DNA of 64,000 nucleotides from NCBI GenBank assembly GCA_937952265.1, contig CALFYW010000016.1, forward strand, positions 398,661 through 462,660, in the 5' to 3' direction. A model generated the notes under the pieces. The model was not told where the DNA came from. It made no database searches and worked only from the letters and a program-made list of their open reading frames with translations. Positions within the stretch are counted from its first letter, which is position 1. The number at the start of each line of letters is the position of its first letter. Shown in pieces: positions 3,438 to 17,453 of the stretch. Source of the DNA: an uncultured bacterium. GTDB taxonomy: Bacteria; Patescibacteriota; Minisyncoccia; Phycocordibacterales; GCA-2401445. Position numbers and translations under genes: made by a program.

Positions 3438-5078
3438 ATGAGTAAACAAATCTATTACAATGAAGAAGCTCGGAAAGCGCTTAAGCGGGGTATTGATGCG
3501 GTAGCGCATGCCGTAAAGGTAACCATCGGACCTCGTGGGCGTAATGTGGTACTAGATAAAGGCTATGGTGCCCCTACAATTACCAATGATGGCGTTTCTA
3601 TCGCAAAAGATATCTCGCTCAAGGATAAGTTTGAAAATATGGGGGCTGAGATTATTAAGGAGGTTGCAAATAAGACGAACGATACTGCAGGAGACGGAAC
3701 AACGACCTCAGTAATCTTAACGCAAGCGATGGTTGTAGAAGGATTGCGACACACAACCATGGGAGTTAATGCCATGGGAATTCGTCTTGGTATCGAAAAA
3801 GCAGCTTTGGCAGTAGTTGATGCTTTGAAGAAAATTGCAAAGCCAATGAAAGGCAAAGATGAGATAAAACATGTTGCCACTATTTCTGCGGAATCAGAGT
3901 CTATCGGATCAATTATTGCAGAGACGATTGAGAAGGTTGGTAAAGATGGAGTTGTGACGGTTGAAGAATCGCAGTCATTTGGCGTTGAGTCTGAGGTAGT
4001 AGAAGGACTTGAATTTGATAAAGGATATGTCTCACCGTATATGATTACCGATGGTGAGCGCATGGAGGCTGTATATAAAGATGTAGCGATCCTTATTACC
4101 GATAAAAAAGTTTCAGTAATTAAGGAAGTACTTCCTCTTCTTGAGAAACTTGCGCAAAGTGGAAAGAAAGAATTGGTAATTATTGCGGAGGATGTTGATG
4201 GAGAAGCACTAACGACCTTTGTGCTCAATAAGCTTCGAGGCGCATTCCATGTATTAGCTGTTAAAGCTCCAGGATATGGTGATCGCAAGAAAGAATTGCT
4301 TCAGGATATTGCGGTAACCGTTGGCGCAAAAGTGGTATCTGAGGACCTTGGATTAAAACTAGAGACCGCTGACGTGGATGTGCTTGGAAAAGCAATGAAG
4401 ATTGTCTCAAGTAAAGATAATACCGTTATCGTCGGCGGTAAGGGACAAAAAGCCGCGATTGATGAGCGGGTTAAACAGTTAAAGAAGCAAAAAGAGCAAA
4501 GTGACTCGAAATTTGATCGTGAAAAATTTGAAGAGCGAATCGCAAAACTTTCAGGTGGTGTCGCCGTGATTCGAGTTGGGGCTGCGACTGAAACTGAAAT
4601 GAAATATCTTAAATTGAAAATTGAGGATGCAGTAAACGCAACCAAAGCCGCGATCGAAGAAGGCATTGTTCCTGGTGGCGGTAGTGCTTTGATTCGTGCA
4701 GCACACAAGGTTTCAAGTGCATCAGGAGCTTCTCGAAGTCGAGAAGAAGAGGTTGGGTTTGAAATTGTGCTTAAAGCACTCGAAGCCCCACTACGCCAAA
4801 TTGCCGTGAATGCTGGCAAGGATGATGGCTCAGTGATTGTCGAAAAGGTGAAAGAGCTCGGAGATAATGGTGGCTATGATGCAAACAAGGATGTATTAGT
4901 CGATGATATGCTTAAAGAAGGTATTATTGATCCGGTAAAAGTAACTCGCAGTTCTGTTGAAAACGCTGCTTCTGCTGCCGCAATGCTACTTACTACCGAG
5001 GTCGCTATTACGGATGAACCAAAAGAAGAGAAGGATACCCCACCGGTTCCAGGTGGCGGTATGGGTATGGACTACTAA
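3438..5078 (+). CDS. groEL: Chaperonin GroEL (Hsp60).
   Basis: 546 aa with AGDGTTT and GGGSALI motifs and a C-terminal GGGMGMDY tail. Confidence 0.95.
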   Translation: MSKQIYYNEEARKALKRGIDAVAHAVKVTIGPRGRNVVLDKGYGAPTITNDGVSIAKDISLKDKFENMGAEIIKEVANKTNDTAGDGTTTSVILTQAMVVEGLRHTTMGVNAMGIRLGIEKAALAVVDALKKIAKPMKGKDEIKHVATISAESESIGSIIAETIEKVGKDGVVTVEESQSFGVESEVVEGLEFDKGYVSPYMITDGERMEAVYKDVAILITDKKVSVIKEVLPLLEKLAQSGKKELVIIAEDVDGEALTTFVLNKLRGAFHVLAVKAPGYGDRKKELLQDIAVTVGAKVVSEDLGLKLETADVDVLGKAMKIVSSKDNTVIVGGKGQKAAIDERVKQLKKQKEQSDSKFDREKFEERIAKLSGGVAVIRVGAATETEMKYLKLKIEDAVNATKAAIEEGIVPGGGSALIRAAHKVSSASGASRSREEEVGFEIVLKALEAPLRQIAVNAGKDDGSVIVEKVKELGDNGGYDANKDVLVDDMLKEGIIDPVKVTRSSVENAASAAAMLLTTEVAITDEPKEEKDTPPVPGGGMGMDY

Positions 5079-6308: not shown

Positions 6309-7217
6309 ATGGCAACTTTATACACCCACCAAGATCAAAATATTCGGAAAACATGGGTACTCATGACGCTTTTCCTCGTGAGCGTGATTGGGATTGGGTG
6401 GGCATTTAGCTTTGTGCTCGACAATGTATTCATTCTTTATGTCGCCGTGGCGGTGAGTATCCTCATGAACATATGGAGTTATTGGTATTCGGACAAGATT
6501 GTCTTAGCAATTGCCGGAGGAAAGCAGGTAAGTCGCGAGGCATATCCTGATCTTTGGAATATCACGGAGAATCTCGCAATTACTGCTGGTCTGCCAATGC
6601 CCAAGCTCTATCTTATTCATGATGACGCACCTAACGCGTTTGCAACCGGAAGAGACAAAACGCATGCGGCAGTCGCGGTTACAACAGGGCTTCTCTCAAT
6701 GCTTGATCGTAGCGAGATTGAGGGGGTGATTGCGCACGAACTCGCCCATATTGGTAATCGAGACATTTTATTAACCACTATCGTGGTAATTTTGGTCGGG
6801 TTTGTAACCTTGCTGTCAGATTTCTTCCTACGCATGACTTTTTATGGACATGGCGGTGGACGTGATCGTGACGGGAGAGTACAGATGATTCTACTGCTTA
6901 TTGGCATTGTGCTCGCGATTGTGGCTCCACTCGTAGCGATGGTTATACAACTTGCGATTTCAAGAAAACGTGAATTCTTGGCTGATGCGAGCGGCGCGCT
7001 ATTAACTCGCTATCCCGAAGGTTTAGCACGCGCGCTTGAGAAGATCTTTTCATATACTCAAGACTTGAAGCGCGCGAATCATGCAACCGCGCATCTCTAT
7101 ATTGCGAACCCTTTTAATTCGCAAAAAAGTCGCCGAGGATTTTTTACGAAACTTTTTATGACGCATCCTCCGGTTGAAGAGCGGATTGCCGCGCTTCGCG
7201 GCAGGAGAGAGGTATAA
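6309..7217 (+). CDS. htpX: Zinc metalloprotease HtpX (peptidase M48).
   Basis: HELAH zinc motif, four TM segments and a C-terminal THPPVEERI tail. Confidence 0.85.
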   Translation: MATLYTHQDQNIRKTWVLMTLFLVSVIGIGWAFSFVLDNVFILYVAVAVSILMNIWSYWYSDKIVLAIAGGKQVSREAYPDLWNITENLAITAGLPMPKLYLIHDDAPNAFATGRDKTHAAVAVTTGLLSMLDRSEIEGVIAHELAHIGNRDILLTTIVVILVGFVTLLSDFFLRMTFYGHGGGRDRDGRVQMILLLIGIVLAIVAPLVAMVIQLAISRKREFLADASGALLTRYPEGLARALEKIFSYTQDLKRANHATAHLYIANPFNSQKSRRGFFTKLFMTHPPVEERIAALRGRREV

Positions 7218-7227
7218 GAGTTATCAC

Positions 7228-7312
7228 GGAGGGTTCGCATAGTGGTCGAGTGCGCTCGCTTGGAGAGCGAGTAAGGGTTACACCTTCGAGGGTTCGAATC
7301 CCTCACCCTCCG
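7228..7312 (+). tRNA. tRNA-Ser (anticodon GGA), class II tRNA with a long variable arm.
   Basis: The 7-bp acceptor stem GGAGGGT pairs with ACCCTCC. The anticodon stem-loop is CTCGC-TTGGAGA-GCGAG, followed by a 16-nt variable arm and a GGTTCGAATCC T-loop. Confidence 0.8.
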
Positions 7313-7316
7313 CAAA

Positions 7317-8295
7317 TCGTAACTTCGCGTTCTGACAGTGCGGTCGCGCGCCGTGATGGGCGCACGGCGCGCGACAATTTTCCTCGCCGCTTCGCGGCGA
7401 AATGGCTCGGCGGGGTGAATTCAAAAAGAGCGGATTTGTCACGAACCCGAGGGTTCGTTCCGATTTTTTGGACGAACGACTTTATTTCATGTAGATTGTC
7501 CGACTTCGCCAAAAAATCGGCCTGTTTCGTCTAAAATCCATGCCTGCAGGGGTTCGACTTTTGAACGCGGCGAACAAAGCAACCTACGCCAACAAGGAAG
7601 CGCCGAAAGTCGCGCCCTCCCGCCTCAAATCCGAGGACTATCATTTTGAACAGGACGGCTTGATATATCACGATACCTATTTTGGCGGGCGCGACTTTAT
7701 CGGCGGAGAAATCGTATATGAAAGCGAAAAGCCGGTCTGGGGTGCAAATTATTTCGGCTTCGTGCTAGACGAAAATATTAGCGAGAAAGATGTATACGAT
7801 TTTTTGCGTAGTGCGCTTATGCAGGAATATGACGATGTTATTCCCGTGCGCGCACTGGGTGGGAGGGGCAAGCACAATACCAATTTTGTATCTTGCCATT
7901 CATTCTTGATAAAATGGTATGGCAAGATTCTTTTTTTGGAGCCGCATTTTTTCGCCGAAACGCATTCAAGCGAGGGCGCGGCGGGAGGAGGGGGATGGGG
8001 GGAGGAATCCCGCCGCGCCCGAGCTTCCCGCCGGAGCGAAGCGGAGGCGGGTCAGTTCCCTTCAAAAAAGGTTCGTGCAAAGTGTAATATTTCACCGCAA
8101 TGATTCACGAAGGACAGCCTTGAGGCTGTCCGAGTGAAGCATCATTGCGAGACGGGCAAGGAGATGAGAAAGACGGAGCGAATACCGAGCCAGCAGGCGA
8201 GGTCGCGAGTCGGGGTCGCAGAAATTTCCGAGTGACGACGAGGAAATTATCAGTGACCGAATCCCTGCCGGCAGGCAAGCTTCACCCTCCGCAAA
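7317..8295. mobile_element. Putative remnant of a tRNA-Ser-integrated element: a ~1 kb GC-rich islet bounded by the tRNA 3' end and a partial downstream copy of it.
   Basis: The tRNA T-arm/acceptor segment 7295-7316 (CGAATCCCT...CACCCTCCGCAAA) recurs at 8257-8295. The downstream copy has a 16-nt insertion, and the distal 14-mer TCACCCTCCGCAAA is identical. The enclosed DNA is visibly more GC-rich than its flanks. No integrase is present. Confidence 0.4.
7540..8103 (+). pseudogene. Decayed DUF5680-like gene. The N-terminal ~130 aa look protein-like; the C-terminus dissolves into GC-rich low-complexity sequence.
   Basis: The N-terminal segment resembles DUF5680-family proteins from memory. After ~aa 130 the frame reads SSEGAAGGGGWGEESRRARASRRSEAEAG, which is not protein-like. 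Confidence 0.3.
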
Positions 8296-8425
8296 ATAAT
8301 GAAGCGAAATATATTTTGCGAGACGTTAGTCTTAAACAATTCGTTCTTGACCCCAAAGACGCTAAGCGCGGGGGTTGAGGAAATGATCGAAAGTAAATCA
8401 CAGGTTATTAATAATCAACAAATTT

Positions 8426-8845
8426 ATGAATAACATGATCACCATTCAGACAACCGTCAAAGCTCCTATTGAAAAGGTGTGGGAGTGTTGGACAAAGCCC
8501 GATCACATTTCCATGTGGGCGGCGAGTGGCGATTGGGAAGCAATCGCTAAAAGCAATGACTTACGCGTTGGCGGTACGTTTAACACGCGCATGCAAGCAA
8601 AAGACGGCAGTGCCGGCTTTGATTTTATTGGCGAGTACACCGCTGTTGTTCCTCATGAGCGTATCGAGTACACCATGGATGATGGTCGTAAGGTAAAGGT
8701 GGTGTTTGAGACAGAGTCAAAAGGAGTAAAAATTGTTGAAAGTTTTGAAGCTGAGAAAGAGAATTCAGAAAAGGTACAAAGAGATGGTTGGCAAGGGATA
8801 CTTGATAGTTTTAAGACGTATGCTGAAAAGGCAATTAAAAAATAA
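8426..8845 (+). CDS. SRPBCC-superfamily protein (AHSA1/Aha1-like, activator of Hsp90 ATPase homolog domain).
   Basis: 139 aa with the typical N-terminal I-T-V-APxEKVWECWTKPDHISMW AHSA1-domain pattern. Confidence 0.65.
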   Translation: MNNMITIQTTVKAPIEKVWECWTKPDHISMWAASGDWEAIAKSNDLRVGGTFNTRMQAKDGSAGFDFIGEYTAVVPHERIEYTMDDGRKVKVVFETESKGVKIVESFEAEKENSEKVQRDGWQGILDSFKTYAEKAIKK

Positions 8846-8855
8846 GTAACAATAT

Positions 8856-9911
8856 ATGAATCTTAAGGATCGTATCGCTACTGAAGCACAACAAGCAATA
8901 GATGATCATGTGTTTCCTGGGTGTGTAATTGGTATTGTATACAAGGATGGAACCGGCTCTATACTGCCATTTGGGCATTTCACCTATCAGCAATCATCCT
9001 CACGTGTAAAAGAGGACAGTATGTATGATGTTGCGTCAATTACCAAATCGATCCCTACCGGAAGTATTGCCCTTCAGTTGATTGACCAAGGAAAGTTGCA
9101 TGTCACTGACAAACTCATTGAGTATGTCCCTGAGTTTAGAAATAGTGATCGAGAACGAGTTTTAATTAAACACCTGCTCACGTACACACTAGATGGCTAT
9201 GGTCTGGCCTCATTAAAAGAGAAGAGTGCAGATCAACTCTTTGAGATATTACTTACACACGATTTTGAAAAACGTCCAGGAACGGTATTTAAATATTCAA
9301 ATATTCCCGCAGCATTACTTGGCTTGGTGGTTGAGCGGATTACTGGAAGAACACTTGATCAAGTTGCGGATGAGTGTTTTTTCAATCCGCTCGGTATGGA
9401 ACGTACGACGTTTTATCCGGAAAATTATTTAATTGATGATATTGTCCCAACTGAACGTGATGATTGGCGTGGTCTGGTGCACGGTGTTGTGCATGATGAA
9501 AGCGCGTATATTTTTAAGAGAAGTGGCAAAATTGTTGGGCACGCGGGTTTATTCTCCACCGCTCCTGATTTATTAAAGTTTCTCGAGATGCTTCTGCACA
9601 AGGGTGTTTTTAATGGAAGGAGGTATCTTTCAGAAACAATAATTACCCGCATGACAGAGAATCAAATCCCCTTGCTTGATGATACTACGGGACTTGGCTG
9701 GGAACTTAATCAGCCTCGATATATGGGGGAATATGCGGGATCGAACACTTTTGGAAAGACCGGTTTTACCGGTACACTTTGTGTGGTAGATATTTCGAGA
9801 GGGGTTGCGTACACCATCCTTTCTAATCGGATCTTCCCACAACGACCTCCCAATTCTCACTCTATTAATAGGTTTAGGAAAATTATCGGGGAAATTGTTC
9901 TGAAGCCGTAA
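8856..9911 (+). CDS. Serine hydrolase of the class C beta-lactamase / PBP4* family.
   Basis: All three motifs are present: S-x-x-K (SITKS), Y-x-N (YSN) and K-T-G (FGKTGFTGT). Confidence 0.75.
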   Translation: MNLKDRIATEAQQAIDDHVFPGCVIGIVYKDGTGSILPFGHFTYQQSSSRVKEDSMYDVASITKSIPTGSIALQLIDQGKLHVTDKLIEYVPEFRNSDRERVLIKHLLTYTLDGYGLASLKEKSADQLFEILLTHDFEKRPGTVFKYSNIPAALLGLVVERITGRTLDQVADECFFNPLGMERTTFYPENYLIDDIVPTERDDWRGLVHGVVHDESAYIFKRSGKIVGHAGLFSTAPDLLKFLEMLLHKGVFNGRRYLSETIITRMTENQIPLLDDTTGLGWELNQPRYMGEYAGSNTFGKTGFTGTLCVVDISRGVAYTILSNRIFPQRPPNSHSINRFRKIIGEIVLKP

Positions 9912-17056: not shown

Positions 17057-17063
17057 GATATGT

Positions 17064-17453
17064 TGGCAACTATGCCTATAAGCCGAATTCTGTACTGATG
17101 CCATAGCGGAATCAGCGATAGTCATTTATCTAGCCCTATAATTACTTATAGGGTCAAGCGGCACTCTGAAATCTTAAAAAGAGATCAGCACGGCCTTGCA
17201 CTTAGGTAAGGATTTAGCCGTTTCAATTTTTACGTTACCGTAAAAACTCATCCATTGTTATGATCACAGTGGATGTCAGACTGCTTTCGCATCCTGACGT
17301 CTCTGCTCGCACCTCTATCCATAACATAGTTAATAAATTATGGATTGACGGGCGTTACCCGCTACCGTGCTCCGAGCTTTTAATGGCTCGGAAGTGTTCG
17401 GACTTTCCTCTCCAGGAGTTAAACTCCTAGAGCGACTATCCGGCATAATCACT
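17064..17453 (-). ncRNA. rnpB: RNase P RNA (bacterial type A-like), rnpB.
   Basis: The reverse complement contains GAGGAAAGTCCGAACAC (P4 5' strand) and ACAGAATTCGGCTTATAGGCATAG (P4 3' strand plus P1), as well as AGATAAATGACTATCGCTG, GGTAACGCCCG and a P3 hairpin (ctaggag-ttta-actcctgg). The P1 pairing TTATGCC / GGCATAG defines the ends. Length ~390 nt. Confidence 0.8.

Follow-up and report, generated by a model that had tools for sequence, protein, structure and literature searches.

A decayed remnant, probably of an integrative element, beside tRNA-Ser(GGA) in an uncultured member of the Patescibacteriota

In staphylococci, large serine recombinases (LSRs) of the ccr type insert the SCCmec and pseudo-SCC elements into a conserved gene, at its 3′ end, and leave that gene active. 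The classical attL and attR sites of phage-type LSRs have only a 2-bp core in common and usually lie inside protein-coding genes. In the streamlined genomes of Prochlorococcus, degenerate tycheposons, fragmented integrases, and partial transfer RNAs (tRNAs) gather at tRNA sites; these elements can stand in tandem at one site, and a minority of them carry an LSR (bioRxiv 10.1101/2020.12.28.424599). Here, we describe a tRNA-adjacent scar in an uncultured bacterium of the Patescibacteriota. It lies in a 64,000-nt stretch of contig CALFYW010000016.1 (hereafter the window, to which all unlabeled coordinates refer), between an intact tRNA-Ser(GGA) gene and a second, partial copy of the 3′ end of that gene. 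Comparison loci and proteins are cited by L and P numbers, respectively.

The scar downstream of tRNA-Ser(GGA)

The DNA enclosed by the two tRNA ends (7317-8295, hereafter the islet) is, we conclude, probably what decay has left of one or more integrative elements that entered the 3′ end of tRNA-Ser(GGA) by site-specific recombination. A preliminary description of the locus had taken it for the eroded stump of an integrated element. This interpretation is supported by an LSR remnant, a foreign piece of a DUF5680 gene, intact tRNA-linked operons in other genomes, and a conserved module at the right end of the islet.

The upstream copy of the repeat (S) consists of CGAATCCCT followed without interruption by CACCCTCCGCAAA, and both parts (9 and 13 nt) are identical in the downstream copy (S*). 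Read from the sequence, S* comprises CGAATCCCT (8258-8266), the 16-nt insertion GCCGGCAGGCAAGCTT (8267-8282), and CACCCTCCGCAAA (8283-8295). The 14-mer TCACCCTCCGCAAA occurs exactly at 7303-7316 and 8282-8295 and at no third site in the window. Likewise, the pattern CGAATCCCT-N(0-30)-CACCCTCCGCA has just two occurrences in the window, 7295-7314 and 8258-8293; a set of 100 shuffles that preserved dinucleotide frequencies gave none. The recurrence of the T-arm and acceptor segment, with its identical 14-mer and 16-nt insertion, is thus as first described. Because the repeat extends 3 to 4 nt beyond the mature tRNA end (CAAA), it is a duplication at the DNA level. The repeat had also been read as a classic attL/attR footprint. 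The tRNA 3′ end is indeed directly repeated at the two boundaries, but the repeat may be part of a tRNA-end module that recurs at other loci and not a simple pair of attachment sites.

The islet is also compositionally distinct, as its reported GC richness had implied. Its GC content is 53.0%, against a window mean of 42.4% (standard deviation 2.4%, 979-nt windows), which places it in the top 0.2% and makes it the most GC-rich kilobase of the 64 kb. Its trinucleotide distance is similarly extreme (z = 5.7). We found neither another copy of the islet nor a second arm of the 7970-8096 hairpin element elsewhere in the window, and a blastn search of the islet against phage and plasmid collections gave no match in either.

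The preliminary description saw no integrase in the islet. However, the minus strand of 7317-7558 retains the 3′-terminal part of an LSR gene, and the recombinase was therefore of the serine rather than the tyrosine type. The translation of this remnant (TKQADFLAKSDNLHEIKSFVQKIGTNPRVRDKSALFEF...) aligns without gaps with residues 440 to 511 of the LSR of L014 (BLASTP, E = 4e-6; tblastn, E = 7e-9). L014 has an intact 550-amino acid (aa) LSR open reading frame (ORF) at the matching HtpX|tRNA-Ser(GGA) site, together with an exact copy of the tRNA end, 22 nt long and in direct orientation, and its LSR and the remnant lie at an equal distance from the tRNA and both read towards it. The LSR domains of L014 (Resolvase, Recombinase, and Zn_ribbon_recom), which the LSR of L087 shares, are not kept in the window, where the surviving codons lie downstream of them. 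No other LSR was found by tblastn in the 64-kb window.

A second remnant, in L125, is longer and equals residues 316 to 544 of the L014 LSR. It matches the window at 85.6% nucleotide identity over 7241-7558, and at 87.7% over the non-tRNA part (7317-7558) alone; the HtpX proteins of the two loci are 57% identical in amino acids. Homology to L125 ends exactly at 7558, and a 2-nt deletion at ~7531 relative to L125 shifts the frame of the window remnant into a stop codon. The 125 nt adjoining the tRNA are ~96% identical between the window and L125, which suggests, from this comparison, that the tRNA-proximal part is under constraint. A search with the 75-aa remnant peptide recovered only five short ORFs (92 to 120 aa, 63 to 86% identical), all of them LSR C-terminal fragments. 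The C-terminus of this LSR lineage persists in this form in five other assemblies (P0241-P0245; L125 1047-1745, L126 3020-3195, and L127 1456-1691), and no intact LSR with this C-terminus was found in a word-indexed protein search. A T-arm-like motif, CCTGCAGGGGTTCGA at 7543-7557, was considered as a third tRNA fragment and rejected, as it represents antisense LSR codons (..VEPL..) common to L125.

Next to the LSR remnant comes the interior of a DUF5680 gene, a fragment with 90% nucleotide identity to L089 2005-2301 and 95% amino acid identity to P0001 (153 aa). Its 29 differences from L089 fall at codon positions 1, 2, and 3 in the ratio 2/4/23, and this predominance of third positions indicates that the gene diverged under purifying selection and was broken recently. 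The ORF that encloses the fragment (7540-8103) scores 57 bits against Pfam DUF5680 (PF18931; cut-off 25), with a match to profile positions 1-58 of 104 only. The fragment is a DUF5680 member by descent, yet a truncated pseudogene. No DUF5680 relatives were found in IMG/VR. Both the LSR and the DUF5680 pieces are foreign, since they share 88 to 90% nucleotide identity with other metagenomes, whereas the HtpX protein of the host reaches at most 72% amino acid identity.

Two deletion junctions bound the DUF5680 fragment. At the second, 7846-7879 matches sequence that lies ~50 nt past intact DUF5680 genes (L089 2494-2524, L093 1434-1464, and L101 2931-2963). The motif is also present in L098. An overlap of 10 nt (7846-7855) indicates that ~190 bp were deleted at a microhomology. 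Further downstream, the sequence of 7940-8098 is found directly 3′ of the DUF5680 stop codon in L103, L106, L107, and L108, forms inverted-repeat arms around an operon in L090, and sits before the second tRNA-Thr copy in L096. The poly-Gly/Arg/Ala tail of the 187-aa ORF is the translation of 7846-7879 and 7940-8098. Thus, the decayed DUF5680-like ORF of the earlier account does hold a truncated DUF5680 fragment, but its seemingly junk C-terminus reflects a microhomology deletion and non-coding hairpin DNA, not slow coding decay. For annotation, this means that the 187-aa “DUF5680” ORF is not a gene and that the tRNA-Ser locus is best treated as a former integration site.

From these parts we infer a history for the locus. 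By likeness to intact elements of related Parcubacteria, the ancestral element would have had an LSR gene beside the tRNA and reading towards it, a cargo operon led by an XRE-type helix-turn-helix (HTH) gene and ending in DUF5680, a GC-rich terminal hairpin region, and a structured end module of ~200 nt that abutted a second copy of the tRNA 3′ segment. Integration would have left the tRNA intact and its 3′ segment, from the T-loop to +4, duplicated at the far junction, and would have displaced the former 3′ segment together with its terminator hairpin (8290-8320). The recombinase and cargo would then have been lost. Sequence comparison shows two later deletions: deletion 1 (7558|7559) took the catalytic part of the LSR and the operon through DUF5680 codon 7, and deletion 2, at the 7846-7855 microhomology, the DUF5680 C-terminus. 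The decay is completed by the 2-nt frameshift in the LSR remnant and the 16-nt insertion in the distal tRNA copy.

The end of S* forms part of the hairpin at 8290-8320, which is probably the displaced original terminator of the tRNA and whose flank is conserved in L077 (6205-6242) and in L046. The terminator-like hairpin within the islet (7343-7375) is likely to serve tRNA-Ser, and, with the possible exception of this hairpin, no part of the islet is likely to be functional now. At the level of sequence comparison, we consider the identities and boundaries of the fragments, both deletion junctions, the frameshift, the foreign origin, and the occupancy of the same site by an intact LSR in L014 to be established.

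Intact relatives and the recurrent tRNA-end module

The scar itself is of an ordinary, known kind: a degenerate integrative element at a tRNA gene. The family to which it leads is little known and is under-described in bacteria of the Candidate Phyla Radiation (CPR). Intact DUF5680 genes are the last or near-last genes of operons headed by a small XRE-type HTH gene. The cargo of these operons is varied, and includes an Old/AriA/GajA-like ATPase, a dCMP deaminase, an HNH nuclease, an EcoO109I-like nuclease fusion, and NUDIX, GrpB, and histidine phosphatase proteins. HTH-led operons with defence-like genes (L087 3571-6462, L089 151-2441, L090 402-2527, and L108 9309-10462) are nearly always terminated by DUF5680, which itself has no PADLOC match. 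The genes regarded as defence-like are those for the ATPase, an HNH/REase-like nuclease, the EcoO109I-like fusion, the dCMP deaminase, and NUDIX. The DUF5680 operons adjoin tRNA genes for Asn, Glu, Ala, Thr, Ser (CGA), Gln, Asp, Lys, and His, and in L087, L098, and L100 an LSR gene lies between the tRNA and the operon. In L096, a complete tRNA-Thr(TGT) gene stands on each side of the DUF5680 element (14-88 and 4249-4323), with no partial copy. We found no literature on DUF5680 elements or on LSR/tRNA elements in Patescibacteria.

The intact elements have a palindromic architecture. LSR genes and HTH-led operons each lie within long inverted repeats (130 to 343 nt, 96 to 100% identical; L087 1646-6672, L100 9180-13917, L014 5954-7989, and L090 132-2677). 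In L014, the palindrome arms are 172 nt long with the LSR inside, and a second pair of arms surrounds the cargo operon in L087 (211 nt) and in L100 (343 nt). The outer ends of these repeats overlap the last 4 to 24 nt of the adjoining tRNA, a layout that ordinary integration does not predict. The inverted copies and long repeats may be recombinase half-sites, products of palindrome extension or collapse, or parts of an RNA. The LSR frames of L014 (5930-7582, minus strand), L087 (1632-3101, minus), and L098 (7406-9208, minus) run antisense through an inverted-repeat arm and the whole tRNA. Each protein thus has a C-terminal tail whose codons span the junction, and excision or inversion would alter that tail. 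An ARAGORN call of a transfer-messenger RNA (tmRNA) at L014 5536-6043, overlapping the HtpX 3′ end and tRNA-Ser, is almost certainly spurious and due to the tRNA.

The right end of the islet belongs to a module that recurs at other tRNA genes. Over its full length, 8096-8295 is homologous to the interval in L107 that runs from tRNA-Met to a partial copy of tRNA-Met, and the two modules each end in the 3′ segment of the local tRNA, each with a small insertion. Hairpin B, which ends in GTGAC, is kept by compensatory changes in L107 and L046, and the predicted folds of the module are strong (z = -5.0 and -6.1). The module had no Rfam match, either in an E-value scan of 6500-9500 or in a gathering-threshold scan of the window, which gave only tRNAs and RNase P RNA; the remaining matches near the locus are at chance level and overlap the tRNA.

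Among the fetched loci, nine tRNA genes have exact direct copies of their 3′ end (14 to 25 nt) within 3 kb downstream, where by our own estimate chance would give ~2e-4 per tRNA, and six have exact inverted copies (13 to 24 nt). The usual order is tRNA, terminator-like palindrome, inverted tRNA-end copy, structured core of 80 to 130 nt, and direct tRNA-end copy. The module stands without cargo directly after tRNA-Met (L107), tRNA-Ser (L046, L077, and L038), tRNA-Gly (L007), tRNA-Thr (L096), and tRNA-Gln (L106). The module sites are L007 3637-3900, L046 8502-8775, L077 5925-6420, L096 8285-8500, L107 2240-2506, L106 1826-2030, and L038 6823-7050. L077 carries three direct tRNA-end copies, which suggests serial events.

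A strain variant of the window (ERZ869946; L006) differs at 3 of 840 nt, all of them in a 55-nt stretch that belongs to the module core and the partial tRNA copy (8210-8262): GAGTCGGGG is replaced by GAGCCGGGG, GTGACGAC by GTAACGAC, and CGAATCC by CGACTCC. A 77-aa ORF (8145-8378, plus strand), which is called as a gene in the public contig L003 (992-1225), lies wholly over the non-coding module and partial tRNA copy and is probably not a gene.

The islet and its host flanks are summarized in Table 1. Pfam assigns LemA and HtpX to the left flank and an SRPBCC/AHSA1 gene and a beta-lactamase-fold gene to the right. The HtpX relatives are Parcubacteria (Yonathbacteria, Paceibacterota, and others), with identities of at most 68% in a scan of one genome per species; in a search of 5.8 billion proteins, the best non-self homologue had 72% amino acid identity. 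In many of these relatives tRNA-Ser(GGA) adjoins HtpX in one orientation or the other, and the locus has therefore been inverted in the course of evolution. The tRNA follows HtpX on the minus strand in L008, L011, L012, L018, L019, L020, and L024.

The islet is collinear with the window in four independent contigs of the same organism (L002, L003, L005, and L006; at least three independent assemblies). Contig ends at 7261, 7853, 7993, 8058, and 8240 were considered as signs of alternative arrangements and rejected, as every contig is collinear with the window. In ERZ869942, NODE_170 and NODE_236 end and start at 7154-7261, with a 108-nt overlap that comprises the HtpX 3′ end and the tRNA 5′ half.

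Table 1. Features of the tRNA-Ser(GGA) locus, and the RNase P RNA elsewhere in the window, in window coordinates.
Feature	Position	Strand	Remarks
HtpX (Peptidase_M48)	6309-7217	+	Left host flank; Pfam
tRNA-Ser(GGA), intact	7228-7313	+	ARAGORN; Rfam tRNA, 56 bits
Repeat copy 1 (S), CGAATCCCTCACCCTCCGCAAA	7295-7316	+	T-loop C56 to 3-4 nt beyond the tRNA end
LSR gene, 3′-terminal remnant (~80 codons)	7317-7558	-	tblastn, BLASTP, nucleotide match to L125
Terminator-like hairpin	7343-7375	+	13-bp stem, then AATTTT; conserved in L125
Chimeric 187-aa ORF	7540-8103	+	Start is LSR remnant antisense; tail is non-coding hairpin DNA
Deletion junction 1	7558-7559		LSR homology ends at 7558; DUF5680 homology begins at 7559
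DUF5680 gene, internal fragment	7559-7855	+	Codons ~8-105 of 153; first 7 and last 48 codons absent
Deletion junction 2	7846-7879	+	10-nt microhomology at 7846-7855, GTGCGCGCAC (GTGCGCG.AC)
GC-rich terminal hairpin region of cargo element	7940-8098	+	Stem 7968-7986 / 8008-8026
Hairpin 1 of right-end module, GCAATG...CATTGCGAGAC	8096-8149	+	Self inverted match; homologous sequence after tRNA-Met in L107
Candidate decayed inverted copy of tRNA 3′ end (S′)	8156-8186	+	Weak; putative, by alignment with clear inverted copies of L046 and L107
Module core	8201-8258	+	19-mer GGTCGCGAGTCGGGGTCGC (8201-8219), identical in L107, and hairpin B (8214-8258)
Repeat copy 2 (S*)	8258-8295	+	CGAATCCCT, 16-nt insertion, CACCCTCCGCAAA
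Hairpin CGCAAAATA...TATTTTGCG	8290-8320	+	Uses the end of S*; read from the sequence
SRPBCC/AHSA1-like gene	8426-8845	+	Right host flank; Pfam
RNase P RNA, bacterial class A	17063-17451	-	Rfam, 111.7 bits

Alternative interpretations

Several observations weigh against a simple integrative element at this site. None of 80 relatives has a DUF5680, SRPBCC, or beta-lactamase gene downstream of HtpX, and the nearest HtpX-linked relatives (55 to 68% identity) lack the downstream genes of the window. The islet is present in all four same-species assemblies, and no empty site or excision product was found among these and relatives whose HtpX is at most 72% identical. The LSRs of L087 and L098 were tried as kin of the window remnant and rejected for want of a significant match; only the L014 type matches. 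Because LSRs normally need a crossover of 2 bp only, the 22-nt direct repeat is no necessary product of LSR integration. The inverted tRNA-end copies and long inverted repeats of the relatives go beyond an attL/attR model, and the inverted copy of L014 and of L098 is separated from the tRNA by the LSR, so that the direct copy may belong to a separate module older than the cargo.

On another reading, which we regard as doubtful, the tRNA-end copies would be working parts of an undescribed cassette-capture system in Parcubacteria rather than passive scars. Its unit would be S, palindrome, S′, structured core, and S, with LSR genes and HTH-led operons at the palindrome centers, as in L014, L087, L098, L100, and L090. 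Under such a system, the module would be a re-usable landing pad, a non-autonomous mini-element, or an RNA whose closing helix imitates the tRNA acceptor/T helix. Cargo would be gained and lost serially at many tRNA genes, and the window would represent the end state of one cycle.

It is also conceivable, if unlikely, that the direct repeat marks a separate, recurrent module of ~170 to 200 nt (inverted copy, core, and direct copy) and is not the attL/attR pair of the LSR/DUF5680 element. The module might then be a non-autonomous element of miniature size, a landing pad open to re-use, or an RNA with a defined structure, and the LSR and cargo would have inserted later, between it and the tRNA, and subsequently decayed. 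Consistent with this are the occurrences of the module without cargo after five kinds of tRNA gene (Met, Ser, Gly, Thr, and Gln), its position in L014 past the LSR, which lies between the tRNA and the inverted copy, the conservation of its core across hosts with different tRNAs (the identical 19-mer and the compensatory hairpin changes), and the strength of its predicted folds. However, such a module is largely compatible with the remnant of an integrative element, as it could be the right end of that element, left after deletion between inverted-repeat arms. Moreover, it matches nothing in Rfam, its inverted copy in the window is decayed, its direct copy carries the 16-nt insertion, and all three single-nucleotide differences of L006 fall inside it, which suggests relaxed constraint.

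Very improbably, the islet is ancestral host DNA, with a DUF5680 gene that was native to the locus and decayed there, and with a 14 + 9-nt repeat that arose by local duplication or chance. The presence of the segment in all sampled genomes of the organism, together with the failure to find an empty site, would fit such an origin. The data contradict it, however: the DUF5680 fragment and LSR remnant share 88 to 90% nucleotide identity with sequences of genomes in which core proteins reach at most 72%, the islet stands out from the window by its extreme composition, it holds a recombinase remnant, and the repeat is absent from all 100 shuffles and its pattern recurs at other tRNA genes. That the downstream copy is a degenerate tandem tRNA-Ser pseudogene, or belongs to an RNA gene that resembles a tRNA (a permuted tmRNA, for example), is scarcely credible: the two tRNA-Thr genes of L096 illustrate that whole-tRNA duplication does occur in the element family, but no D-arm, anticodon-arm, or 5′ acceptor sequence lies upstream of 8258, ARAGORN and Rfam find no tRNA or tmRNA there, and the sequence 5′ of the copy is the module hairpin common to L107 at its tRNA-Met site. 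For the GC-rich DNA itself, a group I intron, a permuted tmRNA, or another structured RNA was likewise rejected, since Rfam found only tRNAs and RNase P RNA and ARAGORN no tmRNA.

Significance and comparison with described systems

The greater interest of the locus lies in the palindromic architecture of the family rather than in the scar. Mobile elements of CPR bacteria (Patescibacteria) are poorly catalogued, and this remnant led to a coherent family in which an LSR and HTH-led, defence-like operons are found at many tRNA genes. The family spreads between hosts whose core proteins are ~57 to 72% identical, which is direct evidence for recent horizontal transfer among reduced genomes. It is also a possible source of new tRNA-targeting serine integrases.

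The tycheposons are similar in several respects: integration adjacent to a tRNA gene, a full and a partial tRNA at the flanks, accumulation in tandem, remnants with fragmented integrases and extra partial tRNAs, use of an LSR (in a minority of tycheposons), and cargo related to defence or adaptation. Nonetheless, the host here is a CPR bacterium, the recombinase of every intact relative found is an LSR, no primase, helicase, or polymerase genes for replication were called in the intact relatives L087, L014, L089, L090, and L108, which have an LSR, an HTH-led cargo operon, or both, and inverted tRNA-end copies and near-perfect inverted repeats of 130 to 343 nt surround the LSR and cargo.

SCCmec and pseudo-SCC elements resemble this family in their insertion by an LSR, probable here, with the target gene spared, in their short direct repeats at both junctions, their serial accretion into composite islands, and their recombinase-less remnants between repeats. 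They differ in target (rlmH, as opposed to a tRNA gene here) and in phylum, and the elements described here are far smaller, at ~2 to 5 kb when intact; a link to ccrA/B is no part of the likeness. With the phage-type integrases of phiC31, Bxb1, and A118, the LSRs of L014 and L087 share the Resolvase, Recombinase, and Zn_ribbon_recom architecture, whereas the 11- to 25-nt tRNA-end copies, both direct and inverted, set the present family apart. Finally, the cis-mobilizable elements (CIMEs) of Streptococcus thermophilus likewise consist of DNA within att-like repeats without a functional recombinase of its own. In contrast to CIMEs, the repeat here is damaged and the 64-kb window holds no intact LSR, which makes mobilization in trans doubtful.

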